From the IMG/VR virus record IMGVR_UViG_3300025353_000004, positions 1 to 52,116 of that record: a stretch of 52,116 nucleotides of DNA; one strand, written 5' to 3'. This DNA is from a virus (Duplodnaviria > Caudoviricetes). This document shows positions 8,103 through 51,989 of the stretch, piece by piece. The notes below the pieces were generated by a model. It was not told where the DNA came from, made no database searches, and saw only the letters and a list, made by a program, of their open reading frames with translations. Position 1 is the stretch's first letter. Each line of letters starts with the position of its first letter. A program made the translations under genes and the position numbers.

Positions 8103-9434
8103 TTATTTAAGTTCTTCAATTGCAATGTCTGAAATAGCCCTTTTATCCGCTAAAGCCGCCCAGATACGTTCATCAATCGTTTTATTTGTTAATAGGATAT
8201 AGCACCAAACATCGTGCTTTTGCCCCCCTCTATGCAATCTGCCTATGGTTTGCTCAAACAATTCTAAGCTCCAAGGCAAAGATACAAACACCATCTTGCT
8301 ACCACCATGCTGAAGATTTAAGCCATGCCCAGCGGACTTGGGGTGAATCAATAGCAACTCAATCTTGCCTTCATTCCAACGCTCGATAGCCTTATAGTCA
8401 TTGATTGTCTGGGCATGAGGGTAACGGCGTTTGAGTTCTTCTAGTTCTTCTTTGTAGTTGTAAACAAGCAACGTATTAGCGTGTTGATTCTCTGATAAAA
8501 GATCGTCTAGTGACTCAAATCGGTGATCTGAGAACCATACAGGTGTTTTAACTGAATCAAACTGCCCTGCGGTACTAGAGGGTGTTCGTTCTGTGTGATA
8601 ACAAAAGCCTGATGCCATCTGTTGTAGCTTCTGAGTTACTACAGCCGAATTAGCCGCGATGATCTGTGCTTCTGGAAATTGGTAAACAAAGTCCCTTTTC
8701 ATTTTTTCGTATGGTTCGCGGTCTGGCAAATTGCAACGTATCTCTATTGTGTGCAAGGGTGGGAGCTTATCTTTATATTCGGCTGACTCTAATAAGAAGG
8801 TGGCTGGGCGAATCTTCTGCATCACGGCTTCTAATGCGCCCAGCCGAGGTTGCCAATCGCCAAAGTCACGATTGACACACACAAAGTACTGCTGTAGGAA
8901 CGCGCCTTTGCTCCTACCCAATAGGGTTTGGTCTATTACTTTGCATTGACCAAACACATCTTCTAAACCATTAGACGTAAAAGAGCCTGTTAATCCCCAG
9001 CGAAACTTAAAACGATCAATTACTTTAAGTAGGTGTTTATACCTAGTACCAGAAGGATTTTTGAGTTTGGTTAATTCATCAAATACGATGCCATCAAACC
9101 CTGCTAAATCGGGCAAGGTTTGGATATTGTCGTAATTGGTTACAACGATCTGCGCTTTGGATTTGAAGGCTTCTTGACGTTGTTTAGGCGTTCCTACCGC
9201 TATTGCCATCTTCATCTTGGGAGTCCACTTAGCCAACTCTTGCGCCCATACATCGGTGCAAACCCGTTTAGGCGCAAGAACAAGCCAGCGATTGACATGA
9301 TGGTCGTTATATAGGGCTTGCATAGCTGTAAGGGCAATAGCCGTCTTACCTGCGCCAACGGAAGCAAGGATCATCGCCCTATCGCGCTCGTATAGGAAGT
9401 CAACTGATTGTTCTTGATAATCGCGTAGTTTCAT
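8103..9434 (-). CDS. SNF2-family (SF2) helicase
   Basis: LRDYQ, GAGKT (Walker A), FDE, GLTGS, SAGHGLNLQ and QTIGRLHRGGQ motifs. Confidence 0.92.
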   Translation of the reverse strand: MKLRDYQEQSVDFLYERDRAMILASVGAGKTAIALTAMQALYNDHHVNRWLVLAPKRVCTDVWAQELAKWTPKMKMAIAVGTPKQRQEAFKSKAQIVVTNYDNIQTLPDLAGFDGIVFDELTKLKNPSGTRYKHLLKVIDRFKFRWGLTGSFTSNGLEDVFGQCKVIDQTLLGRSKGAFLQQYFVCVNRDFGDWQPRLGALEAVMQKIRPATFLLESAEYKDKLPPLHTIEIRCNLPDREPYEKMKRDFVYQFPEAQIIAANSAVVTQKLQQMASGFCYHTERTPSSTAGQFDSVKTPVWFSDHRFESLDDLLSENQHANTLLVYNYKEELEELKRRYPHAQTINDYKAIERWNEGKIELLLIHPKSAGHGLNLQHGGSKMVFVSLPWSLELFEQTIGRLHRGGQKHDVWCYILLTNKTIDERIWAALADKRAISDIAIEELK

Positions 9435-9733
9435 AGCTTTATACCTGCCGCCCATTCATTAATGGCTTCGGCTGTGTTTAGCAACACATATTGTTGCTTT
9501 AACGCAACCATTGATTCTGCAAATAATTCTTGCATAGGGGATACAACCCCACCTTTAGGACGCTTCAATTCCACAAACCACGTTTCGCCATTGGGTAAGC
9601 AAGCAATACGATCTGCTACCCCACGTTGCGTAGTTGTCTTAAACTTAAAGGTTCTACCGCCCATTATTTCCACCTGCCAGATAAAGTAATTTTCAATTTC
9701 ATGTTCTTTTAATGCTTTTGTTTTTCTTGTCAT
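9431..9733 (-). CDS. VRR-NUC domain nuclease
   Basis: E..IE, GVADRI, WFVELKRP and SPMQ motifs. Confidence 0.88.
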   Translation of the reverse strand: MTRKTKALKEHEIENYFIWQVEIMGGRTFKFKTTTQRGVADRIACLPNGETWFVELKRPKGGVVSPMQELFAESMVALKQQYVLLNTAEAINEWAAGIKL

Positions 9734-9822: not shown

Positions 9823-10947
9823 ATGGCAAAGCACTCAAGTATCGTAGGCGGATCAACCGCTAAACGTGTTATCAATTGCCCCGCATCAGTCGCTCTTGTA
9901 GCAAAGATGCCACCAAAACCTTCTTCCAAATATGCTGATGAAGGTACGTTATGTCATAACGCTATTGCTGAGATTTTAGATAAAGGCGTTACGCCTGAAT
10001 CTTTACTTGGAATGAAGTACAAAAAGCATACTCTTACACAAGCACTCTTAGACGCCAAAATTTACCCTGCGTTAAAACTTTTAAGTGAAGTTGATCCTGA
10101 TGGTGAAATGGAATTCATGGTTGAAACGGAGATTGATTTTGGTAACCATTTGCCGGGCGCTTTTGGTTCTGCCGATGTATTAGGAAAACTACCTAAAAAA
10201 GCGATTGTGCTTGATTGGAAGTTTGGATCAGGCGTAATTGTTGAAGCAGAAGAAAACGATCAAGGTATGTTTTATGGTCGTGCGGCTATGCACACAGAAA
10301 AAGCCAAATGGATTTTTGAGGATATAGAAGAAGTAGAAATTATCATTATTCAACCTCCTGAAATCCGCCGTTGGACAACAACTGTAGCGCGGTTAGAACA
10401 ATTTGAACGTGATCTTGTAGCCGCTGTCAAAGATTCCACACGCGCTGATGCAATGATGGCTTCAGGCGATCATTGTCGTTGGTGTGCCGCCAAGCCTATT
10501 TGCCCTTTAATGACAGGCGCAGTAGATCGGGCTACACAATTAGCGTTAAAAGATTTAAATCCATCGCAGATTGCAACCTATTTATCTCAGGCAGATATGT
10601 TAGAAGAATGGGTAAAAGATTTACGCGAGTTAGCTCATCAAATGCTTGAAGCTGATGTTAATGTGCCGGGTTATAAGTTAGTAGCTAAGAGAGCAATACG
10701 TCAATGGGAAAATGATAATGTAGCGCTTACAGCACTTACAACTCTAGGTGTACAGCCTTATAAACCACCTGAATTAATTTCACCAGCACAAGCAGAAAAA
10801 TTGCTTGGTAAAAGTAATAAAGCAGTATTAGATGATTTAGTAGTCGCTGTAAGTAGTGGTAGTACGTTGGTAGCAGAGAATGATCCGCGCCCAGCGGTTT
10901 TAAACATCGGGAGGCAACTTACCGCCGCCCTTAATAAACTAAACTAA
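9823..10947 (+). CDS. PD-(D/E)XK Cas4-like exonuclease (DUF2800-like)
   Basis: CPAS, EGT.CH, GSAD, VLDWKFG and C-terminal HCRWC...C motifs. Confidence 0.85.
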   Translation: MAKHSSIVGGSTAKRVINCPASVALVAKMPPKPSSKYADEGTLCHNAIAEILDKGVTPESLLGMKYKKHTLTQALLDAKIYPALKLLSEVDPDGEMEFMVETEIDFGNHLPGAFGSADVLGKLPKKAIVLDWKFGSGVIVEAEENDQGMFYGRAAMHTEKAKWIFEDIEEVEIIIIQPPEIRRWTTTVARLEQFERDLVAAVKDSTRADAMMASGDHCRWCAAKPICPLMTGAVDRATQLALKDLNPSQIATYLSQADMLEEWVKDLRELAHQMLEADVNVPGYKLVAKRAIRQWENDNVALTALTTLGVQPYKPPELISPAQAEKLLGKSNKAVLDDLVVAVSSGSTLVAENDPRPAVLNIGRQLTAALNKLN

Positions 10948-11923: not shown

Positions 11924-12042
11924 TATAATGAGCTATGTGCTTGGCGGCGCAATATAGGTAAGCCCTAATCTGCAATCTGCTCGAACCTATCGAGTCCGCC
12001 AACGTCCGATCCAAAGGACGAGATTGCAGTTTAGGGCTTTTT
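11921..12042 (+). ncRNA. c4/CI-antisense-like structured leader with extended -10 promoter and U-tract
   Basis: TG-A-TATAAT; hairpin with UUGGCG loop; 18-bp stem closing two hairpins around an exposed complementary CCGCCAA; followed by a T run. Confidence 0.6.
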
Positions 12043-12055
12043 GCTTGGAGTTTGT

Positions 12056-12442
12056 ATGAAAGAAATTTGGAAAGATGTGCCAGGGTATGAAGGTAAATAT
12101 CAAGTTAGTAGTTTTGGTAACGTAAAATCTTTTGTAAAAAATAAAGAAGGCAAACTTCTTAAACCGGGTCGTATGTCCAGCGGTCATTTATCTGTGGCTT
12201 TTGGAAGAGGAAATTCAATTTGTGTTCACACGTTAGTTCTATCAACTTTTGTTGGGGGTGCGCCTAAACGCCATGAATGTCGTCATTTAAACGGAAATCC
12301 AGCCGATAACAGGTTAGAAAATCTTAAATGGGGAACTAGGACTGAAAATATTTTAGATGCGGTATCTCATGGAACTTGGATGACTGTTGAAAGAGTTAAT
12401 GCTTTAAATAAAGGTCGCAACACTAGGTGGGGAAACAAATGA
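12056..12442 (+). CDS. NUMOD4-HNH homing endonuclease
   Basis: EIWKDVPGYEGKYQVSSFGNVKS (NUMOD4); RHLNGNPADNRLENL (HNH). Confidence 0.9.
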   Translation: MKEIWKDVPGYEGKYQVSSFGNVKSFVKNKEGKLLKPGRMSSGHLSVAFGRGNSICVHTLVLSTFVGGAPKRHECRHLNGNPADNRLENLKWGTRTENILDAVSHGTWMTVERVNALNKGRNTRWGNK

Positions 12443-14403
12443 GTATTTTGTGGTGCGATTTTGAAACAAAGTCCCGTTGCAATCTGTTAACGCGTGGCGT
12501 GTATAACTACGCGCAAGATAGTTCAACCGAAGTGTTGTGTATGTCTTATGCGTTTGGTGATGCTGATGTTGTAACGTGGACTCCTGACCAACCCTTTCCT
12601 GATGCAGTACGCAATCACAAGGGAATGATCTATGCTCACAATGCCGCCTTTGAACGGCTGATCTTTTGGTATGTATTGCAAATCAATTTTGATTTAGAGC
12701 AATTCTATTGCACCGCTACTCAGGCTAGGGCTAATTGCGCGCCCGGCTCTCTTGAAGATGTAGGGCGTTTCGCAGGGGCGTCTATGCGAAAAGATTTTAG
12801 AGGTTCACAATTAGTAAGAGCTTTATGTATTCCGCAACCTGACGGCAAGTTCAATGACGATCCCATACTTATGAAAGAAATGGTCGAATACTGCGAACAA
12901 GACGTCAGGGTTATGCGGAATATTAGCGGGGCGATGCGCCCGCTATCTAGCGAGGAACAACTCGACTATTGGGTTAATGAGCGCATTAATGATCGAGGCG
13001 TATTGGTGGATGTGCCACTTGCACAAGCCGCGATGCTCTATTCCGAAGAAGAAATCCTTGAAGTTCAAAAGCTGGTAGTAGAGATTACTGAAGGTGAGAT
13101 CACCTCAGTACGCTCGCCCAAGATGCGCGAGTGGGTGCAATCCAGAGTAGGTGATGAAGCTTTAAAGCTAATGGAGTCATATAAAGAAGGACGTAAAAAG
13201 TATTCCATTGATAAGAATGTGCGTAACTCTTTACTTATCTTTGCTGATGAGAATCCCGATCAAGTGCCACCTCATGTTGCGGATGTAATTCAATGTGCTG
13301 ATGATTTATGGGCATCCTCAGTAGCTAAGTTCCAACGCATGGTGAACTTAGCTGATGAAGAAGATCACAGAGTCCGAGGCGCGTTTATGTTTAATGGTGG
13401 TAGCGCTACAGGTAGGGCGTCTAGCATGGGGCTACAAGTTCACAATTTCACCCGCAAATGCGCCAAACATCCTGAGCAAGTGCGTAACGATATGGTAAAG
13501 GGTAGCGATATTGTGCCGCAACATGGTAAACGCGTAACCGATGTACTTAAAGGAATGTTACGCCCTGCAATTATTCCTGCTAAGGGTAAATACCTAGTCG
13601 TAGCAGATTGGGCAGGTATTGAAGCCCGTTGCAATCCTTGGTTATCTAACAAACCGCAAGCTGAAGAAGTACTTGATGTATTTAGAGCAGGGAAAGACAT
13701 TTATATCCGCGAAGCCGCAGGGATTTTTCGTTGCGATGAGGCTGAAGTTACGCCTGATCGTAGACAGCTAGGGAAAGTTGCTATTCTTGCTTGCGGCTAT
13801 GGTGGCGGCATTGGGGCTTTTGCGGCTATGGGTCGCAACTACGGCGTTATTCTTCCTGAGTCTGATGCTCGTAAGACTGTTGATGCTTGGCGTAGAGCTA
13901 ATCAATGGGCTGTTCAATATTGGCAAGAACTAGAAACGGCGTACACCAGAGCCATGCGAAACATAGGGCATGAGTTTAGTGCTGGGCGCGTAACGTATTT
14001 ATTTGATGGCTTGCACCTTTGGTATGCTTTACCCAGCGGCAGAGTGCTATGCTATCCCTATGCCAGACTAGATCAGGAGGGGGTAACTTACGCTAAAGCC
14101 GCGTGGAAACCCGCCGCCCTCGATACTGAATGGGCTAGAGCTAGACTCTGGAAAGGGTTGGCTTGCGAAAATATTACTCAGGCTGTTGCTAATGACATAT
14201 TGCGTAATTCTTTACGATTTTGCAACGAAGAAAAATTAGATGTAATATTGCATTGTCACGATGAAATAGTGGTAGAATGTGACATAAATGATGCGGAGCA
14301 AGTAAAAAATAGATTAAATGAAATTATGTGCGCTGCACCTGTTTGGGGGAAAGAGTTGCCCTTAGATGTTGAAATAAAAATAATGCAAAGGTACGGCAAA
14401 TGA
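12439..14403 (+). CDS. polA: DNA polymerase family A with 3'-5' exonuclease
   Basis: DFET and AHNAAFE exonuclease motifs; motif A DWAGIEAR, motif B RQLGKVAILACGYG, motif C HDE. Confidence 0.95.
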   Translation: MSILWCDFETKSRCNLLTRGVYNYAQDSSTEVLCMSYAFGDADVVTWTPDQPFPDAVRNHKGMIYAHNAAFERLIFWYVLQINFDLEQFYCTATQARANCAPGSLEDVGRFAGASMRKDFRGSQLVRALCIPQPDGKFNDDPILMKEMVEYCEQDVRVMRNISGAMRPLSSEEQLDYWVNERINDRGVLVDVPLAQAAMLYSEEEILEVQKLVVEITEGEITSVRSPKMREWVQSRVGDEALKLMESYKEGRKKYSIDKNVRNSLLIFADENPDQVPPHVADVIQCADDLWASSVAKFQRMVNLADEEDHRVRGAFMFNGGSATGRASSMGLQVHNFTRKCAKHPEQVRNDMVKGSDIVPQHGKRVTDVLKGMLRPAIIPAKGKYLVVADWAGIEARCNPWLSNKPQAEEVLDVFRAGKDIYIREAAGIFRCDEAEVTPDRRQLGKVAILACGYGGGIGAFAAMGRNYGVILPESDARKTVDAWRRANQWAVQYWQELETAYTRAMRNIGHEFSAGRVTYLFDGLHLWYALPSGRVLCYPYARLDQEGVTYAKAAWKPAALDTEWARARLWKGLACENITQAVANDILRNSLRFCNEEKLDVILHCHDEIVVECDINDAEQVKNRLNEIMCAAPVWGKELPLDVEIKIMQRYGK

Positions 14404-14891
14404 AATGGAAAACTATTCCTGAGTGGGATCGATATGAAGTAAGCGAATTTGGGGATGTTCGATCTAAAGACATGAAAGTCGGCGCAAAAGGCGGTAAAAC
14501 GGCTTTGCGAAAAGGTAAAAATTTGGCTTTAGTTACTAAAAATAATGGTTATGTCTGTGTTACGTTAACAAACGGAACAGCGCGTCCTCAAATTGGGGTA
14601 CATCGCTTAGTAGCTAGGGCTTTTTTAGGTGAATGTCCTATTGGGTTACACGTTCTACATTGGGATGGGAATAAATGCAATAACCATTATTCAAATTTAA
14701 GATATGGTACACCCGCTGAAAATGTAAATGATGAGCGTAGAATGAATAAAGAAGGCAGAATATTAAATCGCAATGCAGTTATAGAGATACGAAAAAAGAA
14801 TATGTCCGCTCCTAATCTAGCAAAACAGTTTGGCGTATCTGTCCATACAATTCACGGCGTTTGGTATAAACACTCATGGAAACACGTCTGA
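14400..14891 (+). CDS. NUMOD4-HNH homing endonuclease
   Basis: WKTIPEW..YEVSEFGDVRS, VHRLVARAF, HWDGNKCNN..NL; HTH-like C-terminus. Confidence 0.9.
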   Translation: MKWKTIPEWDRYEVSEFGDVRSKDMKVGAKGGKTALRKGKNLALVTKNNGYVCVTLTNGTARPQIGVHRLVARAFLGECPIGLHVLHWDGNKCNNHYSNLRYGTPAENVNDERRMNKEGRILNRNAVIEIRKKNMSAPNLAKQFGVSVHTIHGVWYKHSWKHV

Positions 14892-14978: not shown

Positions 14979-17330
14979 ATGGCTGAAAAAATTATATCAC
15001 CAAACGAATTCATTGACTTTTTAGCAAAACTACCTGCTGAGGGTGAAACTCTTTTGGTGGTTAAGCAAAAACCTGTCATGTCCAATGGTGAACACGCTTT
15101 GCATGGCGACGGGACACCAAAATATACTTGGATTCCGATGTTGCCTGAACGCTACAAGCCTAATGGTTCTCATTACGTTAATACTGGCAGTTTTATTATC
15201 AATCGTTTTAAAGACGGCAAAATGTCGGCTTCTAATGCCAATTGTGAACACACTTTATTTCTGATGTTAGATGATATTGGCACTAAATCTAAAGTGCCAC
15301 CATTAGAGCCAACTTGGAAGCTGGAAACATCGCCGGGTAATCAACAATGGGGCTATGTTTTTGACTTCGATCACCAGCCTACTAAGGGTGAATTCACCGC
15401 CGCTATTAAAGCGATTGCCGCGGCGGGCTATACCGATGGCGGCGCTACTAATGCGGTGCGTAATGTCAGAGTACCCGGTTCTGTTAACTTAAAAGAAGGT
15501 AAAAATTTCTTTGAAGCAAAACTTTTAGAGTTCCATGTGGATCGTGAGTTTAATCTTGACCAAATCTGTAAAGCTTTAGGGGTAAACCCTGAGCAAGCCG
15601 ATACTGCTTTTGTTCGCCCTATCTCTTTAATAGATGATGGGGACGACGACATACTTCAATGGCTTGACGATAACAATCTCATTCTTGAAGAAGGTAATCA
15701 ATCTGGTTGGTATGGGGTAGTTTGCCCGAACTCCGCCGAGCATAGCGATGGCAATCCAATGGGGCGCTATCACCCTCTCAATCGAGCTTACTGCTGTTGG
15801 CATGAGCATTGCCAAGACTTCGGTTCTAAAGCATTTCTATCTTGGGCGGCTGATAACGGCGCGCCTAGACATGAACCCGGTGTGCGGTCTGAACTATTAT
15901 CTAGCGCGCTTTCAATAGCGCTCAAAAAGATTGAGCCTTTTAATCTATTCACAGTTACGCCCGAAGATCAGCTTGCCGAGATCGAGCGTAAAGAGTTGGG
16001 TAGGCTAGAAAAGGAAGATTGGTATGACAGATTCGCCTATGTTCAGTCCGATGATTCTTACTTCGATTTGCTTGCGCGTAACGATATTTCCCGTGGCACT
16101 TTCAATGCGCTTTATCGCCATATCTCTTGCAAGTCTATCCATAATGGGCGCAAGCTTGAAGCGGCTAATTGCTATGATGAGAATCGCGTAGCTCACAATG
16201 CTGTTGCTTTGAGAGGTTTAACCTACGCCGCCGGTGATAGCGCCTTAGTGTCTAGCATGGGTGAATTGCATGGTAATCGGTGGGTTAATGCTCGCCCTGT
16301 TATCCGTTCAAAGGGTGGCAATATTAGCCTTTGGCTTAACCATTGCCATACGCTTGTACCAAACCAAAAGGAACTCGATCACCTTTGGGATATTATGGCG
16401 TTCAAACTCCAAAACCCAAAGATTAAGATCAATCATGCCGTTCTGCACGTTGGCGATGAGGGTTGCGGCAAGGATTTAATGTGGATGCCTTTTGTATGGT
16501 CAGTCTGTGGTGCAGATTCCAAGAATCTTTGCGTAGTTGATAGTGATAAACTTCAGTCCCAGTTCACTTACCATTTAGAGTCAGAGATATTGATTCTCAA
16601 TGAATTAAAAGAACCAGATTCAGCTACCCGTAGAGCATTAGCTAACAAGCTAAAGCCTATCATTGCCGCCCCGCCAGATATGCTGGACATTAATCGTAAA
16701 GGCAAAGATCCATACAAAATGGCTAACAGGCTATTCGTATTGGCTTTTTCCAATGAGCAGATTCCTATCTCTTTATCTTCCCAAGATCGGCGCTGGTTCT
16801 GCATTAGTTCTGAAGCGCAAGCGATGGAAAAGATTAGGGTAGGCTCAGGTCTTGAGCTATACAACTGGTATAGGGCAGGGAACTTTGAACATATTGCTAG
16901 TTGGCTTTACGCCCGTGATGTATCTAAATTCAACCCCGGCTCTGCCCCCGAAATGACTGAATTTAAGATGAATCTTTTAGAGTCAGGCATGAGTAGCCTA
17001 GAGTCCACCATTGTTGAAATGATTAAATCTCGTACAGGTGACTTTGCGCGCGGTGCGATTGGTAGCCCCTTGCATCCTATCTGTGATCGTATTGCTGATT
17101 TGATGGGCATGGGGCGTAATAAAGTACCCCAAAGCGCTTTGCTTCATGCGCTTAAAGAAGCAGGTTGGATTGATTGTGGTAGGCTGGGCGCGGCAGATAC
17201 TAGCAATAAGAAGCGGGTGTTTGCGTCACCAGATGCGGTGCGTAGCTTTAGTAAATCTGAATTACGGCGTATGATTGAGCTACCACCTGAGCCAAAAGCT
17301 GTGGTGTTAGACATGAAGCGGAGCGCATGA
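14979..17330 (+). CDS. Primase-helicase (RepB-like primase, Zn finger, SF3/DUF5906-like NTPase)
   Basis: LDD, ETSPGNQQWGY, RVPGSVN; CP..H..C.H.HC; Walker A GDEGCGKD; ILNE. Confidence 0.88.
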   Translation: MAEKIISPNEFIDFLAKLPAEGETLLVVKQKPVMSNGEHALHGDGTPKYTWIPMLPERYKPNGSHYVNTGSFIINRFKDGKMSASNANCEHTLFLMLDDIGTKSKVPPLEPTWKLETSPGNQQWGYVFDFDHQPTKGEFTAAIKAIAAAGYTDGGATNAVRNVRVPGSVNLKEGKNFFEAKLLEFHVDREFNLDQICKALGVNPEQADTAFVRPISLIDDGDDDILQWLDDNNLILEEGNQSGWYGVVCPNSAEHSDGNPMGRYHPLNRAYCCWHEHCQDFGSKAFLSWAADNGAPRHEPGVRSELLSSALSIALKKIEPFNLFTVTPEDQLAEIERKELGRLEKEDWYDRFAYVQSDDSYFDLLARNDISRGTFNALYRHISCKSIHNGRKLEAANCYDENRVAHNAVALRGLTYAAGDSALVSSMGELHGNRWVNARPVIRSKGGNISLWLNHCHTLVPNQKELDHLWDIMAFKLQNPKIKINHAVLHVGDEGCGKDLMWMPFVWSVCGADSKNLCVVDSDKLQSQFTYHLESEILILNELKEPDSATRRALANKLKPIIAAPPDMLDINRKGKDPYKMANRLFVLAFSNEQIPISLSSQDRRWFCISSEAQAMEKIRVGSGLELYNWYRAGNFEHIASWLYARDVSKFNPGSAPEMTEFKMNLLESGMSSLESTIVEMIKSRTGDFARGAIGSPLHPICDRIADLMGMGRNKVPQSALLHALKEAGWIDCGRLGAADTSNKKRVFASPDAVRSFSKSELRRMIELPPEPKAVVLDMKRSA

Positions 17331-17749
17331 TGTTTTATACCTATATCCATCGTTATCAAGATACGGGGCAAGTGTTTTATGTCGGTATGAGCAAAAATAA
17401 ATCACGCATGACTAGCAAACAACGCCTCCACCAACCTCATTGGTACGCCGCTATTGAAAATAAAGAATGGTTTGCTGAAGCTGTAGCTAATTGGAACACT
17501 AAAGAAGAAGCTGAAAGCCATGAGCAATTGCTAATAGCTTGCTTTAAAGATATGAAACACCCTATCATCAATTTAACCAAAGGTGGGGCAGGGCGCACAG
17601 GCTTTAAATGGACAGCACAAGAACATGAAAAACAATTGGTAAATCAACAAGAACGCGGGCGTAAAGGCGGCTTAATATCTTCAGAAGCAAAGCGCATCAG
17701 CAGTAAACTCAATGGTAAACTAGGTGGTAGACCGAAACGCTTGGGCTAG
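17327..17749 (+). CDS. GIY-YIG-like homing endonuclease
   Basis: FYTYIH...VFYVG, E..LI and NLTKGG motifs; C-terminal NGKLGGRP. Confidence 0.75.
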   Translation: MMFYTYIHRYQDTGQVFYVGMSKNKSRMTSKQRLHQPHWYAAIENKEWFAEAVANWNTKEEAESHEQLLIACFKDMKHPIINLTKGGAGRTGFKWTAQEHEKQLVNQQERGRKGGLISSEAKRISSKLNGKLGGRPKRLG

Positions 17750-20153: not shown

Positions 20154-20435
20154 TTATTTAATCCCCTTCATTGTAGAATTGAGCGCTTCGCATAAATCCG
20201 CAAGGTTATAAATAGATCCGAAAATAATCCCGCCGCCAAATTGCTTATTGTGAAATTTTCGCCCGCCTAATTTGCGCGCCCTTGCAAGCGCTAAATTATA
20301 TTTTCTAGTGATAAAATCGCCCGAATAATCGGCATTTTCCGCCGGTGTATTGAGCGCTAGAAAGTGAATACAATAGCGCGGATTACCATTACTATCATTA
20401 TTCATTCTTGAAAAATCGGATTGTGAGATTGTCAT
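20154..20435 (-). CDS. Hypothetical early protein
   Basis: NDSNGNPRY...GGRKFHNKQFGGGI motif; operon packing. Confidence 0.7.
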   Translation of the reverse strand: MTISQSDFSRMNNDSNGNPRYCIHFLALNTPAENADYSGDFITRKYNLALARARKLGGRKFHNKQFGGGIIFGSIYNLADLCEALNSTMKGIK

Positions 20436-20628: not shown

Positions 20629-21522
20629 TTAAACCCCTTCAATTAGTTTTAATTCTTGCGCCATTTTTTCAATTTGATCCCATGCGATAACGTGACAGCC
20701 GACGATCAAATTTTCCCCGTCAAAACTATTAAAGCGATACGCGCCCAAATTGATATTGTGTAAACCGGCTTCAAGTTTGCCGCCGTTGCGTTTTGTGCGC
20801 GCTAATAAAGGGTAAATTTTGAGCGCATCGCTAACGGGTATTTTCGCGCCGCGCGTTGTTTCTATTTGCTCGCCCTTTATTCTTAATAGCGTATTGCTAA
20901 ATTGAAAGCCGTTAGTATTTACGCTTTCACCGGTTAGCCATAAAGCGAGCCGCTCGGCGCTTTCAAGCGCGGCAATTCTATTGTTTTCGGCTTGTTTAAT
21001 AGCTCTCTTAGCGTCGCGCAATTTTGCCGCTTCACTTACATAAGCGCGGGCGGCTTTTTCGGCGTCGTTGTCTTTTATCCATTGTGGCGGCGGCGTTAGT
21101 GTAGCTTCGCAATAACTAAAAGCGGCGGCGTTATTCTCAAATAATTCACTTGCTAAATTGCCGCGTGTTATCTTACGGGTATTTTTATTAAAATCAGCGC
21201 GCAAGCGCTCGGCTCTATTTGCCCATATAGCAAGATTATGCGACGACGGGCGGCTCGGATCGTCGCAATATATTACTTGATAGCTATCAGGAATAGCGGC
21301 GCGGATAATGCCCTTATGTTTGCCCGTTGATGATGAGTAGCCGCGCGAAGTGAATAAAACTATATTGCCGTATTCGGGCGCGAAGCGCGCAACAGGAAAA
21401 TGCCGCCCATAACTATAGATTGTTTGCCCTTCAAATTCGATATTGCCCGCGCGCCCTTCATTTTGCGATTGAGAAGCCCATATATGGGAGGCTTCATTGT
21501 GGCTAGAAAATACCTTTTTCAT
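20629..21522 (-). CDS. Hypothetical early protein (297 aa)
   Basis: Long ORF with IYSYGRHFP and GCHVI motifs; AAGGGG RBS. Confidence 0.8.
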   Translation of the reverse strand: MKKVFSSHNEASHIWASQSQNEGRAGNIEFEGQTIYSYGRHFPVARFAPEYGNIVLFTSRGYSSSTGKHKGIIRAAIPDSYQVIYCDDPSRPSSHNLAIWANRAERLRADFNKNTRKITRGNLASELFENNAAAFSYCEATLTPPPQWIKDNDAEKAARAYVSEAAKLRDAKRAIKQAENNRIAALESAERLALWLTGESVNTNGFQFSNTLLRIKGEQIETTRGAKIPVSDALKIYPLLARTKRNGGKLEAGLHNINLGAYRFNSFDGENLIVGCHVIAWDQIEKMAQELKLIEGV

Positions 21523-21689: not shown

Positions 21690-21748
21690 TTTGCCCGCCC
21701 TTATCATTTAATTGTCTAAATTGTCATACGTTTTTAAGCGTATGAATA

Positions 21749-21778
21749 ATTATAAGCTGAATTATTTTTACTTGTAAA
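21749..21778 (-). promoter_or_regulatory. Sigma70-type early promoter
   Basis: Minus strand TTTACA-18 nt-TATAAT. Confidence 0.7.
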
Positions 21779-21980
21779 GCATTTTGTTGCATAAAAGCTA
21801 AATTATTTTCTAGGTGTTTACCCTTAGTTTTTATGGTCAAATTGTCTTTTTTTTTGCGGGGATTGTTGCGATATTGTCAAAATGGCGGGCGGGCTTAGGG
21901 CTATATAAGATAAGCTAAAAGCGGCTTTTATGGTTAAGATTGTCATTATAGGTATGCTATGTTTTAAGCAAGTTTTTATA

Positions 21981-22000
21981 TACTGTATAGATATACAGTA
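21981..22000. promoter_or_regulatory. LexA (SOS) box
   Basis: TACTGTATAGATATACAGTA, 19/20 match to TACTG(TA)5CAGTA. Confidence 0.8.
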
Positions 22001-22080
22001 GTATTTTGGCGTGTAGTTGTAGCGCTCAATATATCCGCCGGTGACAATGGACAATATGACAATGGAAAAATGCTGTTAGC

Positions 22081-22227
22081 TTAGGGATAAATGCTAATGA
22101 ATAAGGGCTTAATTCTTAATGCTAAATGCTAATGAATAAGGGCTTAATTCTTAATTCTTAATTCTTAATTCTTAATTCTTAATTCTTAATTCTTAATGCT
22201 AAATGCTAAATGCTAAATGCTAAGGGC
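22081..22227. repeat. Tandem heptamer array (21 units)
   Basis: Strict 7-nt register of TAAATGC, TAATGAA, TAAGGGC, TTAATGC and TTAATTC (seven in a row at 22144..22192). Confidence 0.9.
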
Positions 22228-22328
22228 AAAATCTACCCGCGCCCCGCTATGCTTTAATTTTTCAGCCCTTAGCCGCAAGCATTCAGCTATTAGCTAACGG
22301 CTAACGGGTGACAATCTAGCCCATTCTT

Positions 22329-22356
22329 ATTTGACATAACGTACGTTATACGCAAG
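22329..22356 (-). promoter_or_regulatory. dif: dif-like XerC/XerD site
   Basis: Minus strand CTTGCGTATAA-CGTACG-TTATGTCAAAT; 11-6-11 layout versus E. coli GGTGCGCATAA-TGTATA-TTATGTTAAAT. Confidence 0.75.
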
Positions 22357-22628
22357 CCGTCAAAAAATAGCCGTTTGCTGAATGCTTTTTATAGGGGGTT
22401 TTTTTGCCTATCAAAAAAGAAAAAGGGGGTCATTAATATCTAGTTACCCGATCAGCGGACTTTTTAGCTTTCAGAACACCGCAAAAAGTTCTTTTGCAAA
22501 ACGCAAAAAAATTTTAGAAAAATTAAAACTAAGTTAGTAAACACTAACATATTATGTCAAACAAGCCACTTGCAATCTATAAGGCTTATGCTAATATCGG
22601 TTTATCAATCAACTATAGGGGAGTAGTT

Positions 22629-23036
22629 ATGGCGCGTTTTACACCAGACCCAGTATTCTATTCAGTTGACCATAAGACCGATAAAATTACCGCTACGCAA
22701 GAAGATTTAGACAAAATCTACGATGCCGCTTACCGCGGGCTAACAGGTGACGCATTAGCTCTTTATTCAGGGTTTATGCCTATAGACTTTAATCGCTTAT
22801 GCCAATTTGATTCAAAAGCGGCGGATATGGTATTAACTGCCAGAGCCGCAAATCAAGCAGAACTTAGTGGCGCGCTAATGACTAACGCCTTAAATGGGGA
22901 TACTAAAGCGCAACATATTGCCTTGACACATTTGCATGGCTGGAAGCCCGCTAGACCAGAAGGTGAAAGCTCCAATGAAATCCGTATCATTGTAGAAAAC
23001 GCAGAAGCTCACATAAAACCGGGCGTAGATGGTTGA
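22629..23036 (+). CDS. terS: Putative terminase small subunit
   Basis: Immediately upstream of terL and overlapping it; helical protein with NGDTKAQ..L...HGW motif; GGGGAG RBS. Confidence 0.7.
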   Translation: MARFTPDPVFYSVDHKTDKITATQEDLDKIYDAAYRGLTGDALALYSGFMPIDFNRLCQFDSKAADMVLTARAANQAELSGALMTNALNGDTKAQHIALTHLHGWKPARPEGESSNEIRIIVENAEAHIKPGVDG

Positions 23037-24318
23037 TATTCGTAGGGTCAAATTACCAAAGTTACACGCTGGGCAAGTTGATCTGTACAAAGGGCAAACG
23101 CGACTCAACGTAGTACGCGCGGGCAGACGTTTTGGTAAATCTATCTTTGCTACATGGTTAGCCGCTAAAACAGCAATTTCAGGAAAACAAGTAGGTATCT
23201 TTGCCCCAGAGCATAAGCAATTAGCTGAAATTTGGGATGCTCTACGGGATACGCTTGATCCTGTGATTAGAAGCGCTAATCGTAATGATGCAACCATCAA
23301 GCTAATTGGTGGTGGCAAGATTGACTTTTGGACAATTTTGGATAATGAGTTAGCAGGGCGCGGGCGATCTTATGATTTAACGCTCATTGATGAGGCGGCG
23401 TTTACCAAAAGCCCCCAAATGAAAAATGACATTTGGTACAAGTCAATTAAACCAACAATGCTAACAACCCAAGGTATTACTTGGGTTTTTTCTACGCCTA
23501 ACGGGGTTGATCCTGATAATTTCTTTTGGGCGGCGTGTAATGAAACCGATTTAGGATTTAAAGAGTTTCATGCCCCAAGTTTGGCTAACCCTTATGTGCC
23601 ACCAGCAGAAATTGAATCTGAAAGATTACGCCAACATGAGTCTGTGTTCCGGCAGGAGTATCTTGCTGAGTTTATTGATTGGCGGTCTATCAGCCTGTTA
23701 GCTGTAGACAAACTGCTAGTAAATGAATTGCCTGTTCCTTATCCTACTCAAGTAGAAACTGTCTATGCGGTGATTGATTCTGCCATGAAAGCAGGTCAAA
23801 ACTTCGATGGAACAGCGGTGGTGTACTTTGCTCTTAACTCGCAAAGCGATCAGCCGTTAACAGTCTTAGATTGGGATATTGTGTCAATTGACGCCGCTAT
23901 GTTAGAGCATTGGATTCCATCTGTGTTCACAAGGCTAGAAGAATTAGCAAAGCAGACAAAAGCTATCTATGGCATTACTTCTACTTTTATTGAAGGAAAA
24001 GGGTCAGGTATTGTGCTATTGCAACAAGGTCAAAATAGGGGTTGGAACGTCCGTGAGATTGAACCTAAGTTCGTGCAAATTGGAAAAGATGATCGCGCTA
24101 TGAGTATTTCAGGTTACCATTTCAATGAAAAGGTCAAAATTAGCGAACACGCCTATTACAAAACAGTCCCCTTCAAAGGTGCAACTCGAAATCACTTGAT
24201 TACAGAAATGGCGGGATTTAGACTAGGAGATCCAGACATTAATAAAAAATCCAATGATTTATTAGATTGTTATGTCTACGGAGTTGCGGTAGGCTGTGGG
24301 AATAAACTGGGGTTCTAG
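23029..24318 (+). CDS. terL: Terminase large subunit
   Basis: AGRRFGKS Walker A, IDEAA Walker B, STPNG, FRQEYLAEF and nuclease DLLD motifs. Confidence 0.95.
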   Translation: MVDIRRVKLPKLHAGQVDLYKGQTRLNVVRAGRRFGKSIFATWLAAKTAISGKQVGIFAPEHKQLAEIWDALRDTLDPVIRSANRNDATIKLIGGGKIDFWTILDNELAGRGRSYDLTLIDEAAFTKSPQMKNDIWYKSIKPTMLTTQGITWVFSTPNGVDPDNFFWAACNETDLGFKEFHAPSLANPYVPPAEIESERLRQHESVFRQEYLAEFIDWRSISLLAVDKLLVNELPVPYPTQVETVYAVIDSAMKAGQNFDGTAVVYFALNSQSDQPLTVLDWDIVSIDAAMLEHWIPSVFTRLEELAKQTKAIYGITSTFIEGKGSGIVLLQQGQNRGWNVREIEPKFVQIGKDDRAMSISGYHFNEKVKISEHAYYKTVPFKGATRNHLITEMAGFRLGDPDINKKSNDLLDCYVYGVAVGCGNKLGF

Positions 24319-26575: not shown

Positions 26576-27136
26576 ATGGCTTTTTTTACATACGCCCATC
26601 AAACTGCCGATACAGGCAAAATTTTCTATATAGGTAAAGGATCTCGAAAAGATCGACAAATCGCTAAAACAGGACGTAATAAACATTGGCATAACATTGT
26701 AAAAAAACACGGATTTATAGCTGAAATATTAGCTTATTGGAATACTGAACAAGAAGCTTTTGACCACGAAAAACTTTTAATAACGAGTTTTCGAGATATG
26801 GGATATAGCTTGGCAAATTATACTAACGGAGGAGAAGGGTCTTCGGGAATTAAAATTACAGAAGAAACGCGAATAAAATTACGAAACCGCCCGTATAAAA
26901 AAGAAACTTACGAAAAAGTAGCAAAAGCTTTATGTAAAAAAGTAATCTGTGTAGAATTAGGCAAAGAATTTAATAGCGGTCTAGATGCGGTAAAATGGCT
27001 AAAACAAAATGGACACCCTAAAGCAACATCAGGGGCAATTTCTGTCGGAATACGAAAAGATAAAGTTCGTTATGGGTATAGGTGGAAATTTAGCCAAAAA
27101 GAAGTAAATAGCGTTAAAATCGAGAAAATTTACTAG
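26576..27136 (+). CDS. GIY-YIG-like homing endonuclease (NUMOD1-like C-terminus)
   Basis: FTYAH...FYIGKG, NYTNGGEG, KKVIC...EFNS and YGYRWKF motifs. Confidence 0.8.
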   Translation: MAFFTYAHQTADTGKIFYIGKGSRKDRQIAKTGRNKHWHNIVKKHGFIAEILAYWNTEQEAFDHEKLLITSFRDMGYSLANYTNGGEGSSGIKITEETRIKLRNRPYKKETYEKVAKALCKKVICVELGKEFNSGLDAVKWLKQNGHPKATSGAISVGIRKDKVRYGYRWKFSQKEVNSVKIEKIY

Positions 27137-30012: not shown

Positions 30013-31038
30013 ATGTCAGGTTTTGCACCTTCGTATGTAACAGTAAATCCGCATCACATGATGCCTGAGCTAATTATGCAATATAGCTTGGCTTCTGGCG
30101 CTTTTACAACTCTGGCAACAGAGAATCCTATGCCTCGCCTCGGTGAAGCTGACCTTTATGTTTATGCTAAAAAAGTTCAGTTGACAACTCAAGTATCAGC
30201 TAATCAATCAACGGCTAACCAGTTGCCTAGTGCATCTGTTATCCCTTCGATGATTAGTACTGCTACTTATCGTCTACAAACCCGCGCGCAATATGACAAC
30301 TTCGATGAAGCGGCTACTGGTGCTTGGGGTTATGCCCTACCAGAAGCTCTCCGTTTAGCGGCTCGTCAAGGTATCGCTCAACAGTTGCGTAATGCACTTC
30401 TCTATGGCTATAACCCAGCCAATGGCGAAGGCTTGCTCAATACTGCTGGCGCTACACGCGTGAACTTAGGCGCAGATAGCAACGGTAATACTGGCTATAG
30501 CACATGGGATTCTGGTCAATTGGCTCAGTTCTTGTTGAACATGATTGGTAACCTAAAAACTACCACTCTGCAAATTGGTCAACCATTGCGTTTAGTTTTC
30601 CTAGCTCCACAACGCTTCATTCAACAAATCTCTTACGGCGGCATCGTGTCATTGACACAATTCCAACGTATCGGCGCTGGTGTAGAAACCGCCGCTGGAT
30701 TAGTTGAAACTGTAGCTTCTTGGGCTGGTGGCGATGATGTTTCCTTCGCGGCTGACGATACTCTCGTTGGTCAAGGCTACGGCGGTACTGATGCAATCAT
30801 CTTGGTTGCTCCAGAACTGAAAATCCCACGCGCTAATGCACAAATCAACACCAACGTATTTGCTACTTTGACGCCAAATCAGACAGCTACAACGCTAATG
30901 CTTTGTGACGTAGCCGCACCAACTGAAATTCCTACACCGCTTGCTGATGGAGGAATCACGACTTTGTATACTATGCGCTCAACAAGCGGATGGGGTATTC
31001 GTCCAGAAGGTATGACTATTTTGTCTGCCGCTTATTAA
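30013..31038 (+). CDS. Major capsid protein
   Basis: 341 aa; LLYG...GEGLLN HK97-type motif; strong RBS; followed by a terminator. Confidence 0.8.
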   Translation: MSGFAPSYVTVNPHHMMPELIMQYSLASGAFTTLATENPMPRLGEADLYVYAKKVQLTTQVSANQSTANQLPSASVIPSMISTATYRLQTRAQYDNFDEAATGAWGYALPEALRLAARQGIAQQLRNALLYGYNPANGEGLLNTAGATRVNLGADSNGNTGYSTWDSGQLAQFLLNMIGNLKTTTLQIGQPLRLVFLAPQRFIQQISYGGIVSLTQFQRIGAGVETAAGLVETVASWAGGDDVSFAADDTLVGQGYGGTDAIILVAPELKIPRANAQINTNVFATLTPNQTATTLMLCDVAAPTEIPTPLADGGITTLYTMRSTSGWGIRPEGMTILSAAY

Positions 31039-34099: not shown

Positions 34100-34660
34100 A
34101 TGTTGCGTTTTTACACCTATTCTCATCAAACTGCCGATACTGGAAAAATTTTCTATATTGGTAAAGGTGCTGAAGGTAATACAACTCAACGCTATAAATC
34201 TGCTGGTCATCGTAATGCCCATTGGCACAATATTGTCAATAGACATGGATTTAATGCAGAAATATTAGCGTACTGGGATACCGAGGAAGAAGCGCACGAC
34301 CATGAAAGACTGCTAATTTCTTGCTTTAAAGATATGGGCTATAAGTTAGCCAATAAAACTGATGGTGGAGAAGGAACAGTCGGACATAAACAATCCAATG
34401 AATTGAAAGCATGGCGTTCCCAAAAAATGATGGGAAATCAACTTGCTAAAGGTAAACAACCTAGATTAGGCATAAAACATAGCGAAGCAACTAAGCAAAA
34501 AATTTCTTTATCCAAAAAAGGTACAGTTTCTTGGGCTAAAGGAATTAAAATGAGCGAGGAAACTAAGGCTAAAATTTCAGCGTCTAAAAAAGGTACACCT
34601 TCAATTTTTAAAGGCGTTCCGAATTCTGAAAGGAAACAAAATGAAGGACACATTAAATGA
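34100..34660 (+). CDS. GIY-YIG-like homing endonuclease with NUMOD3 repeats
   Basis: FYTYSH...FYIGKG, NKTDGGEG, HSEATKQKIS and MSEETKAKIS motifs. Confidence 0.85.
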   Translation: MLRFYTYSHQTADTGKIFYIGKGAEGNTTQRYKSAGHRNAHWHNIVNRHGFNAEILAYWDTEEEAHDHERLLISCFKDMGYKLANKTDGGEGTVGHKQSNELKAWRSQKMMGNQLAKGKQPRLGIKHSEATKQKISLSKKGTVSWAKGIKMSEETKAKISASKKGTPSIFKGVPNSERKQNEGHIK

Positions 34661-47570: not shown

Positions 47571-50500
47571 ATGACTATTTTACTTTTTGCTAACCAAGCG
47601 CAAACTACTCTTGCATTACCAGTAACCCCTTCTGATACCACTATTTATTTGGCTAGTGGTACTGGAGAGTACTTTCCTAATCCAGAAATTGGTCAAGCAT
47701 TTAAACTTACTTTAGTTAATTCTACAAACGCATTAATAAACGAAATTGTTTTAGTAACCGCCAGAACAGGTGATGTTTTAACAGTTATTCGTGGAGATGA
47801 AGGTACTATTCCTCAAGCATGGGCTTTTGGTTCTTTTGCAGTTAACTTAGATACTGCTGGTTCTTCAGATGCTTTTGTTCAAACTTATGGTCTAGAAAAC
47901 CATCTTTATTCTGCTTATTTGCAAAATATGAGGGCTACTACAGGACAAGTTGATTCTGTTCCTATAAACCCTACTGATTTAGTAAATAAAGAATATGCCG
48001 ACTATTTAGTTCAAGGCATGACACCAAAAGCAGAATCTCAATGTGCCACAACAACAGTTGCACAAGGCGGTGGCAATATTGCTTTATTTGGTTTGCAAAT
48101 TATTGATGGTTATCAAACTGTAAATGGGGATCGTGTTTTGGTCAAAGACCAAGACAGCCCTGCTCAAAATGGTATTTATGTAGCTAGTTCTGATGTATGG
48201 GTTAGAACAGCAGATATGAATGTTTGGTCAGAAGTGCCAAGTGCTTTTACTTTTGTTCAATATGGTACATATAACACAAATACTGGCTGGGTAGCTCTTG
48301 CTCCAGTAGAGGGAACAATTAATGTAACCCCCATTATTTGGACACAATTTTCTGGATTTGGTATTTCTGGTTACTCTGGTTTTTCTGGCTACTCAGGATA
48401 TTCAGGATTTTCTGGCATTTCTGGATATAGTGGATCAGGCGTATCAGGCTATTCTGGTTTTAGTGGAATTAGTGGCTATTCTGGCTGGTCAGGAATTTCA
48501 GGATTTAGTGGTCAATCAGGCTACTCTGGAATTTCTGGCTACTCTGGATCAGGCGTATCAGGATTTAGCGGTATCTCTGGATATAGCGGTTATAGCGGAA
48601 TAAGTGGTTTTAGTGGCTATTCAGGTATTTCTGGTTATTCTGGAATAAGTGGTTATAGTGGAATTTCTGGATATTCAGGAAGCGGTGTTTCTGGATATAG
48701 TGGTTTTAGTGGCATAAGTGGGTATAGTGGTTTTTCTGGTATTTCAGGGTATTCTGGTTTTTCTGGTATTTCTGGTTTTAGTGGAATTAGTGGATATTCA
48801 GGAATAAGTGGTTATAGCGGAATTAGCGGTTATTCAGGTATTTCTGGTTATTCTGGAATTAGCGGTTATAGCGGATATTCTGGAATTAGCGGTTATAGCG
48901 GATATTCTGGAATTAGCGGTTATAGCGGATATTCTGGAATTAGCGGTTATAGCGGATATTCTGGAATTAGCGGTTATAGTGGTATCTCTGGCTACAGTGG
49001 TATCTCTGGCTACAGCGGTTTTTCTGGCTACAGCGGTATCTCTGGCTACAGCGGTAGTGGTATCTCTGGTTACAGTGGCAGTGGTATCTCTGGCTACTCT
49101 GGCATCTCTGGATACTCTGGTGGAACTTCTGCTGGTGGCTCAAACACACAGATTCAATATAACAATGCTGGCTCATTTGCTGGCGCACCTTTACTCACCT
49201 ATTCCCCACAAGGTAATACTTTAGTAAACCAATCCTACGACCAAGGCACAGGAGTCCTACAAGTAACAGGAGCGTCTAGCTTTAATGGCGCTGTAGTTGA
49301 TAAGAGTCTAAACTTACAGGGTGGTAATAACCTTGTACTTAACTCTGCCATTTTGGTTACCCAAAATATTACTGTAACTGCTAATACTTATACCTTGTCA
49401 ATGACAGGCACAGGAACGATTACATTAAGCGGAACAAGTAGTGGTACTTTAGTTGGCACAGGCGCAAGCACAGTCGTTTCAAAGACATTTACTCCTACGG
49501 CTGGTACGCTTACTTTAACTCCTACTGGCTCATGCACCACAGTTCAATTAGAACTTGGTAACGTATTTAGCGGATATACAGCCACAACAGGAACAGCAGT
49601 TACTACTACTAACGCATTATCAATTCCACAAGGTACTTTTTCTAGTAACGATACGCTTACCGCATCATCAGGCTCTTTAACAGGAACAGCTTTTTCTGTA
49701 GCGCAGACTTGGAATACAACTGGAAATCCAACGGCTTTTAAAGTAAATGTCACTAATATTGCTAACGCTGGTTCAGCACTTTTAGCTGACTATCAAGTTG
49801 GTGGGGTAAGTAAATGCCAAGTAAACTTTGCTGGTGGATTAACTTCTTTCTCGAATATTTATTCACTTGGTGGAGCTTTAATGTATGGCTCTGGCATTAT
49901 TGCTGGAAGCATATATAAAATTGGATTTTCAAGCACTGTAAATGCTTACGATACTCCAGATTTAACTCTCTACCGTGACTCCGCCAACACTCTAGCGCAA
50001 CGCAACTCTACCAATGCACAAGCCTTTAGACTATATAACACCTATACAGATGCTAGTAATTATGAGCGTCTATCTGTAGATTGGACTACTACTGCCAATA
50101 CAGCAACTATCTCTACTCAAAATGCTGGTACAGGGAGTAAGCGTAATCTAGCTATTGCTCAAGATGTAACTATCAACACAGTAACAGTAGGACTAGGTGG
50201 TGGTGCTGTAAGTACGAATACGGCTGTGGGTAGTGGTGTTATGACAGCTACAGCTACTGGAACTGGAAATGTTGCTGTTGGCTATCAATCTTTAAGGTCA
50301 GTAACTTCTGGTTCTGGGAATGTATCTACAGGACAGTATGCTTTATCGGTTAATACAACTGGTATTGCAAACTGTGCTTATGGAAGTGTTTCATTAGGCA
50401 ATGGAAGCGTAGGCGCAAACTACAATTCAGCTTATGGATATTATAGTTTAGGAAATAACATAACTGGCAATAGCAGTTGTGCATTGGGTTATTTTTCTCT

Positions 50501-51533: not shown

Positions 51534-51548
51534 TTAAAAGGAAAAACA

Positions 51549-51989
51549 ATGGCAATCACATTCACAACAACAATCACTTCAATGGAGGCTTATCCTCTTT
51601 ACGAAGCAGTACCCTTGTATGTATTCCGAGTCTATTGGAATTATGAAGGTGACGATGGTAAGTTTTCAACTGCTATGCAAGGCTCTACCGACATTCCAGC
51701 AAGCGACCCACAATCAGCTATTCCTTATGCTGATTTAACGCAAGAACAAGTCATGGGATGGGTTCAGACCTATACGCCAGCATGGACATGGGCAGAGTAC
51801 ACAGACAAGATTACTGCATGGATTACTGCTCAGTACACACCTGCGGTGGTGAATCCTCCATTGCCTTGGTCTGCTCCTCCAGTAGTTGAGCCTATTATTG
51901 AGCCTGTAGTTGAGCCTGTAGTTGAGCCTGTAGTTGAGCCTGTAGTTGAGCCTATTCCACCTATAATTGATGTAATCCCACCAGCATAA
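51549..51989 (+). CDS. Tail-fibre-associated protein (putative chaperone), allele B
   Basis: Homolog of 1091..1495 with an expanded GTTGAGCCTGTA (EPVV) repeat. Confidence 0.65.
   Translation: MAITFTTTITSMEAYPLYEAVPLYVFRVYWNYEGDDGKFSTAMQGSTDIPASDPQSAIPYADLTQEQVMGWVQTYTPAWTWAEYTDKITAWITAQYTPAVVNPPLPWSAPPVVEPIIEPVVEPVVEPVVEPVVEPIPPIIDVIPPA

Follow-up and report, generated by a model that had tools for sequence, protein, structure and literature searches.

Introduction

Mobile DNA exploits Xer sites in plasmid multimer resolution and in small integrating elements, which include filamentous phages, some non-tailed phages and genomic islands. In dif, the six central bases are the place where the strands are cut and swapped, and for recombination by XerCD on the chromosome, XerD normally has to be activated by FtsK. 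The plasmid sites cer (ColE1) and psi (pSC101) carry a spacer unlike that of dif, recombine with themselves and not with the chromosome, and work without an element-encoded recombinase; they need about 180 bp of accessory sequence beside the XerC arm, which is bound by PepA together with ArgR or ArcA. In the pdif (pXerC/D) modules of Acinetobacter plasmids, conserved arms are combined with variable spacers, and each module is bounded by full sites paired in inverted order. Phage P1 has the Cre/lox system, which acts both in circularisation and in dimer resolution, and a pac site with a repeat-core-repeat layout. To our knowledge, the known IMEX elements encode no integrase. In the available text of PMC5357621, the phages VGJphi and TLCphi and the gonococcal island keep homology with the central region of dif on at least one side, and IMEX sites often have one degenerate arm. 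The DNA of P1 is terminally redundant and circularises after entry, as described in the available part of PMC13070987.

Here we analysed a stretch of 52,116 bp (the window), a complete IMG/VR virus record classed as linear and with a CheckV completeness of 100, in which an initial annotation had noticed a full dif-like site. The sequence comparisons reported below suggest that this phage borrows the host XerC and XerD to act on its own DNA, and not to become a prophage.

Results

A dif-type site in the genome of a lytic myovirus

The window corresponds to a contractile-tailed phage (myovirus) with its own replication set, as assigned with PHROGs and Pfam across 78 ORFs. Its main genes are listed here.

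8103-9455, minus strand: SNF2-type helicase
9823-10947: PD-(D/E)XK exonuclease
12427-14403: family-A DNA polymerase
14979-17330: primase
23029..24318, plus strand: large terminase (phrog_2, E 2.9e-27; Terminase_6N weakly)
30013-31038: capsid
12041-12442, 14400-14891, 17327-17749, 26576-27136 and 34100-34660: five HNH/homing-endonuclease genes

Portal, sheath, baseplate, collagen-like tail fibre and lysozyme genes are also present. The HNH/homing-endonuclease genes lie among essential genes, flanking the DNA polymerase and sitting within the head and tail modules. With PHROGs and Pfam, the 78 ORFs yielded no recognisable integrase, repressor module or recombinase, and none of the ORFs scanned was annotated as a Xer activator or recombinase. 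Moreover, a six-frame search for PF00589 returned nothing from the window or from three complete relatives, with the control matching in 14/14 genomes. With its own DNA polymerase, primase and helicase and with no repressor or integrase module, the window phage is of the lytic type, and its earlier description as a tailed phage lacking an integrase holds. Note that blastn of positions 21700-23100 against 50,697 records of cultured-phage DNA gave no match.

The two ends of the record (1-1495 and 47571-51989) are diverged copies of one module, the C-terminus of the tail fibre being 73% identical and a DUF7936 protein 83% identical between the copies. The 'linear' record may be a circular assembly that was left unclosed across a strain-variable tail-fibre region, with about 2 kb perhaps present twice. 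Assembled contigs from four of the 24 runs with this sequence revealed neither beginnings nor ends of molecules, and a depth step in run X1 is equally well explained by strain mixtures.

The dif-like site is located in a non-coding stretch of about 500 bp, between small early genes that run leftward and terminase genes that run rightward, and a candidate small-terminase ORF begins about 200 bp downstream of it. The site consists of the following parts.

22323..22328, minus strand: flank of the XerD-type arm, ATTCTT (AAGAAT on the minus strand); the host dif continues AAGAAA or AAGATA
22329..22339, minus strand: XerD-type arm, reads TTATGTCAAAT; 11/11 against the XerD-side arm of most Polynucleobacter dif loci
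22340..22345, no strand: central 6 bp CGTACG, a palindrome; 0/6 bases in common with the host TCATTA
22346..22356, minus strand: XerC-type arm, reads CTTGCGTATAA; 11/11 against the XerC-side arm of eight host loci

On the strand of the window, positions 22329-22356 read ATTTGACATAA CGTACG TTATACGCAAG (28 bp, 11-6-11), and on the minus strand CTTGCGTATAA CGTACG TTATGTCAAAT. As in dif, two 11-bp arms with partial dyad symmetry are separated by 6 bp; the symmetry resides in the inner ATAA/TTAT, the outer halves being different. Read by eye, ATAACGTACGTTAT at the phage site forms a perfect 14-bp palindrome. With up to 3 mismatches allowed, the window contains no match other than the 28-bp site, and none of 100 shuffles contained one. 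The 11-6-11 XerC/XerD layout that had been noticed initially is confirmed.

The phage arms are identical to those of the Polynucleobacter dif

The pattern TTGCGTATAA-N6-TTATGTCAAA was scanned in one genome per species, covering 185,579 species. It gave a single match in each of 72 loci. Polynucleobacter is named in the titles of 34 of these, and the remainder come mostly from Burkholderiaceae, Burkholderiales or betaproteobacterial MAGs. In 50 of the 72 genomic loci the spacer is TCATTA and AAGA follows beyond the XerD arm; this AAGA is common to the phage site and the host dif. In eight of the TCATTA loci, all of them from Polynucleobacter (L052, L053, L057, L058, L059, L062, L081 and L098), both arms of the host dif are identical to those of the phage over 22/22 bases. 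The similarity between phage and host DNA is limited to about 33 bp. A match of 22/22 bases plus the flank cannot plausibly have arisen by chance. In the dif table of PMC2731167, as far as its text was available, Burkholderia mallei is entered with the XerD arm TTATGTCAAAT and Idiomarina with the XerC arm ATTGCGTATAA; since both arms figure in that table, each half of the phage site is a natural dif arm.

The Polynucleobacter site is a real chromosomal dif, as seen from its copy number, its position opposite dnaA and the switch in GC skew. Each of the three host genomes analysed (G001-G003) has just one copy when up to 2 mismatches are allowed. In the complete chromosome of G001 (1,893,413 bp), dif lies at 588,156 and dnaA at 1,552,495, which places dif 17.6 kb from the dnaA antipode (about 605,800). 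The sampled GC skew of this chromosome changes from positive to negative between 566-586 kb and 590-610 kb, and back again between 1.50 and 1.60 Mb. A dif match was present in 201 of the 241 genomes from the genus of G001, nearly always a single one and with TCATTA nearly invariant; the reversed pattern, used as a control across the same genus, gave 2 matches. Moreover, 3/3 host genomes encode a XerD that exceeds the curated cut-off and a XerC-like paralogue that narrowly misses it.

The region is present in 24 sequencing runs, all of freshwater origin. Since the arms match the Polynucleobacter dif and the runs come from freshwater, freshwater Polynucleobacter is the likely host of the phage, an assignment based mainly on the dif match. 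The initial annotation had compared the spacer with the usual TGTATA; the relevant comparator is the host TCATTA, and against it the mismatch stands, with 0/6 bases in common.

Several contigs of host MAGs (L042, L047, L080, L086 and L092) break within about 300 bp of dif. These breaks would fit with variable insertions at dif in natural populations.

Prophages were not found at the host dif

The site could in principle be an attachment site of the IMEX type, the phage or a recent ancestor of it integrating at the host dif through XerCD as do CTXphi, VGJphi and TLCphi. The identity of both arms with the host dif and the lack of an own integrase agree with this idea. The initial annotation had proposed to look for related prophages at dif, and these did not turn up: in tblastn searches of the site plus up to 5 kb on each side, none of the 72 genomic loci had proteins of the window beside dif, and the capsid protein was found in just 1 of the 241 genomes of the genus, at 40% identity and on a small contig. 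The same annotation had suggested that integration may be poor, in agreement with the spacer (0/6 against the host) and with the lack of prophages beside dif at these loci. The spacer is a further argument, since known IMEX sites keep central homology on at least one side (available text of PMC5357621), as is the lytic gene content, with its own DNA polymerase, primase and helicase and without a repressor/integrase module. We therefore consider attachment of the IMEX type to be very improbable.

The arms are conserved in the phage family

Relatives of the site were collected by a TerL search of the viral collection (33 loci) and by two pattern scans (7 and 31 loci). After deduplication, 17 distinct versions of the site were available for the phage family, the window counted. 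Across these, the frequency of the commonest base averages 0.95 over the XerD arm, 0.92 over the XerC arm and 0.70 over the spacer; the invariant columns number 8 of 11, 7 of 11 and none of six, respectively. The left and right 30 bp of flanking sequence reach 0.75 and 0.50, respectively. The flank beside the XerD arm is conserved among the phage versions; on the XerC side, none of the 30 flanking columns is invariant, and conserved blocks appear further right. Lineages with a TerL just 66% identical to that of the window still carry unchanged arms. The initial annotation had made its XerCD interpretation depend in part on conservation of the arms in relatives; since they are kept, and almost invariant in the 17 versions, the interpretation survives this check. 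Note that contigs carrying the site in other contexts (runs X1, X6 and X12, of four runs examined) match about 22323-22355 only and differ on both sides.

These figures bear on the idea that the site is a neutral relic, a scrap of host DNA that was picked up once and has not yet eroded. Such an origin would agree with the shortness of the host similarity (about 33 bp) and with the loss of the site in two lineages. However, the arms persist even in the lineages with 66% TerL identity, although agreement per column in the non-coding DNA beside them has dropped to about 50%. Replacement of the spacer while the arms are kept is the opposite of neutral decay, and we find this explanation scarcely credible.

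Spacer alleles vary and none equals that of the host

In the orientation of the window, eight spacer alleles occur in the family: CGTACG, CACCAG, CACCGG, CGCCAG, TACCGC, TACCGG, TAGCGG and TCTACC. The palindromic spacer stressed by the initial annotation is therefore a feature of part of the family: CGTACG is indeed symmetric, but it is found in 3 of the 17 distinct versions, and the other seven alleles are not palindromic. The alleles are rich in GC (33/48 bases, compared with 34% in the surrounding intergenic DNA). None equals the host TCATTA, the identity being 0/6 for CGTACG and 0 to 3/6 across all alleles.

The spacer turns over faster than its surroundings in close pairs of phages. Thus, L009 and L011 differ in 4/6 spacer bases with a flank identity of 0.86-1.0, L002 and L003 differ in 2/6, and L148 and L170 in 4/6. 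CACCAG and TACCGG are both present in each of two deeply separated clades, so that the spacer alleles must have had either a reticulate or a convergent history. In a breakpoint test, discordant pairs numbered 4/120 at the site, compared with 5 and 0 at the control boundaries, in fixed windows that are disturbed by indels.

The main rival to recombination at the site is docking: the arms would only hold XerC and XerD, as a decoy that lures them off the chromosome or to shape or regulate the early/late control region, and the GC-rich spacer would hinder strand exchange. Conservation of the arms next to a spacer that varies but is always GC-rich (33/48 against 34% nearby) agrees with docking, as does the lack of any recognisable activator for FtsK-independent recombination among the 78 ORFs. 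Docking leaves unexplained, however, why host-like spacer alleles are absent and why the spacer turns over faster than the flanks, and the benefit of a decoy is not evident. Moreover, GC-rich dif spacers occur on functional chromosomes and are thus compatible with recombination, an example in the available part of PMC2731167 being CGTGCG on chromosome II of V. cholerae.

The site adjoins a repeat-flanked core upstream of the terminase genes

The surroundings of the site contain the following features.

20154-20435, minus strand: small early protein of the TreK family (Pfam PF24229, E 1.1e-17)
20629..21522, minus strand: 297-aa conserved early protein (phrog_7247 only)
22073..22235, no strand: tandem heptamer array of CTTAATT and GCTAAAT units
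22225..22270, no strand: GC-rich core between repeat arrays, with conserved columns in a 19-sequence alignment
22552..22565, plus strand: inverted XerD-type half-site, TTATGTCAAAC AAG, with a host-like flank and no XerC arm; part of an inverted repeat
22554..23036, plus strand: candidate small terminase ORF, overlapping the TerL start; in-frame ATG at 22629 after a GGGGAG ribosome-binding motif
22570..22597, plus strand: promoter-like TTGCAA-16 nt-TAATAT with TG upstream, found by eye, kept in relatives and below the threshold of the promoter scan

The site adjoins a repeat-flanked conserved core and lies upstream of terS and terL. Going rightward, the core (about 22225-22270) is followed by more heptamers and then by the block GTGACAATCTAGCCC. 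The relatives (L002-L021) have other heptamers in the same place, GCTAACA, GCTAGTT and others, which are lineage-specific, and this repeat region or its vicinity is where several related contigs start or stop. Judged from its sequence, the GC-rich core at 22225-22270 is a candidate packaging or replication signal; the repeat-core-repeat layout to the left of the site presumably resembles that of the P1 pac site. The small terminase was assigned because of its position only, since the candidate had no family match in PHROGs or Pfam and no meaningful match in the PDB.

This setting raises the possibility that the site is a signal for a phage protein, or for packaging or replication, that merely resembles dif, the XerD-like arm being one more copy of a TGACA-type motif bound by an initiator or by the small terminase. 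Upstream, in the window and in relatives, TGACAAT and TTGACC motifs do recur, and the region is rich in repeats and adjoins the terminase genes. Yet the XerC-type arm has no counterpart among the TGACA motifs and matches the host dif over 11/11 bases, and a resemblance by chance over 22/22 bases plus the flank is not plausible. In addition, two relatives (L022 and L023, described below) have lost exactly the site, something that an essential pac or cos would not allow. A phage signal of this kind is, in our view, improbable.

The inverted half-site lies 195 bp from the full site, overlaps the first ATG of the terS ORF and is located 5 bp upstream of the promoter-like TTGCAA-16-TAATAT. It is exact in the window, L002 and L003 and has one mismatch in L004, L005, L008, L009, L011 and L166; in the lineage with 66% TerL identity it is absent. 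The TTATGTCAAAC variant is also found in host dif loci. A XerD-type half-site without XerC arm, kept in closer relatives upstream of the promoter-like element of the terminase genes, agrees with docking without recombination; its absence from the lineage with 66% TerL identity does not. Taken with the evidence from the spacers, docking appears to us unlikely but deserving of serious weight.

The TreK family (PF24229) comprises the terminal repeat-encoded protein TreK of Staphylococcus phages, and the match is a hint that the early genes running leftward may be situated in a terminal repeat or close to one. The 297-aa protein is not recognisable as a recombinase: it had no Pfam match and no sequence match in the PDB, the ESM Atlas offered nothing but unnamed viral clusters, and its AlphaFold model (pLDDT 86.6) had no Foldseek match in the PDB at E 0.001 or better.

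The site is a discrete and dispensable module

In L022 and L023 (TerL 65% identical), exactly the 28-mer is gone, and the conserved blocks on both sides and the terminase genes are kept. L014 (TerL 80%) has a degenerate copy with a spacing of 9 bp. The site is therefore a discrete, dispensable module, and since L022 and L023 kept the flanks, it is not the packaging signal itself.

More distant relatives gave no sign of it. In viral relatives with TerL identity of 51% or less, the 1.6 kb preceding terL contained no site (the best candidate had at least 7/21 mismatches), and two complete distant relatives had no generic dif pattern. Phages of Yersinia, Escherichia and Actinobacillus share the head and terminase module; they are lambdoid phages in which lysis genes precede a different small terminase, and no dif-like site was found within 3 kb of their terL. 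In these lambdoid cultured relatives the best match was inside a coding region, with 3/18 mismatches.

Four other viral contigs, L163 (G249), L164, L165 and L168, carry GCGTATAA-N6-TTATGTCAAA with non-host spacers. They have neither gene order nor proteins in common with the window, except for a 31% TerL-like match in L168, about 1.5 kb from its site. G249 (41.7 kb, 96% complete) had no PF00589 match and no phrog_2 match. By a rough estimate, an 18-base pattern may produce a few chance matches in the viral collection, so that these four unrelated contigs serve as a lead only. Finally, the IMG/VR contig L145 (5.7 kb) terminates at a site that has the host-type spacer TCATTA and, to its right, host-like flanking sequence; genes for a RusA-like resolvase and a serine recombinase/invertase adjoin the site. 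L145 may represent a different element beside the Polynucleobacter dif.

Discussion

A proposed target for the host XerC and XerD

The identity of the arms with the host dif, their conservation, the divergence of the spacer, the lytic gene content and the absence of prophages at the loci searched are observed. To account for them, we tentatively propose, with nearly as much belief as doubt, that the site is a target for the host XerC and XerD that was copied from the host dif, is kept by selection and is orthogonal to the chromosome, serving exchange between phage and phage. The site would have been copied from the chromosomal dif of Polynucleobacter, the likely host genus, and selection would keep it in a strictly lytic myovirus. 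Since the arms are identical to those of the host dif, XerC and XerD should load on the phage site, to which the arms would recruit them. Since the spacer is always unlike that of the host, the phage site should be able to pair productively only with itself; this private spacer would confine productive pairing to other phage copies and exclude the chromosome, and integration at the host dif is unlikely. The initial annotation had suggested XerCD binding or phage dimer resolution as the possible real function, and we too find binding or recombination among phage copies more probable than integration.

On the phage DNA, the host XerCD would join or separate molecules. One option is that an incoming terminally redundant genome is closed into a circle, as by Cre/lox in P1; another is that replication dimers are converted to monomers. 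Binding of XerCD, strand exchange, activation of XerD without FtsK and the biological pay-off are all parts of the proposal that we infer from sequence. Several points weigh against it. FtsK is normally needed, and among the 78 ORFs no phage activator was found; lytic phages that package concatemers have no obvious need for dimer resolution; the site is dispensable, being missing in L022 and L023 and degenerate in L014; and the breakpoint test, in windows disturbed by indels, showed no excess at the site (4/120, with 5 and 0 at the controls).

A wider version of this proposal would be that lytic tailed phages routinely hijack XerC and XerD through host-exact arms and a private spacer, circularising or resolving their own genomes and leaving the chromosome untouched, with the quickly changing spacer alleles acting as compatibility labels that determine which co-infecting phages recombine with one another. 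We regard this generalisation as doubtful, although if it were true it would describe a step of the lytic cycle that has not been described before. If XerCD does act on the site, a housekeeping recombinase of the host would be a factor in the replication of a lytic phage. The arm match also singles out Polynucleobacter as the likely host of a phage family that is still uncultured; for other viral contigs, hosts could be assigned in the same manner.

Comparison with known Xer systems

The closest system is the dif of Polynucleobacter, a genus of the Burkholderiaceae, at which XerC, XerD and FtsK resolve chromosome dimers. The phage site has the same 11-6-11 layout, the same arms (22/22) and the same first bases beyond the XerD arm. 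In contrast to the host spacer, which is nearly invariant across 201 genomes, that of the phage is foreign (6/6 bases different) and varies among relatives, and the site is carried by a lytic genome, a virus record of 52 kb, instead of marking a replication terminus.

With cer and psi, the phage site has in common an extrachromosomal core of the XerCD type, a spacer unlike the chromosomal dif and no recombinase of its own. It differs in that the XerC side, where the plasmid sites have their accessory sequence, is the least conserved (0.50), in that accessory sites were not identified, and in that the replicon is a lytic phage. The pdif modules are also alike in their conserved arms and variable spacers on extrachromosomal DNA; however, the window has one full site and, 195 bp off, a second element that is an inverted XerD half-site without XerC arm.

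The analogy that we propose with loxP/Cre of P1 is that of a recombination site, here possibly near the packaging start, that would circularise incoming linear DNA. Unlike P1, which has its own recombinase, the window phage encodes none.

The IMEX elements (CTXphi, VGJphi, TLCphi and the gonococcal genetic island) resemble the window phage as integrase-less elements with a dif-like site, and no PF00589 or PHROGs/Pfam integrase was found in the window. The pattern is nevertheless the reverse of that described in the available text of PMC5357621: the arms are perfect and the spacer is foreign, with 0/6 bases in common between CGTACG and TCATTA and 0 to 3/6 for the other alleles. Integrated copies were not found in the 72 loci and 241 genomes of the genus, nearly all of which have a single site.

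The literature on dif-like and XerCD sites that we covered, mostly outside subscription journals and in part only, describes filamentous, microvirus, non-tailed and plasmid cases and no lytic tailed phage. What this case adds is the exact, genus-wide match to a host dif and the pattern of spacer orthogonality in a family of lytic tailed phages. A host-exact mimic of dif with a foreign spacer in lytic tailed phages fits neither the plasmid group nor that of the integrating elements.
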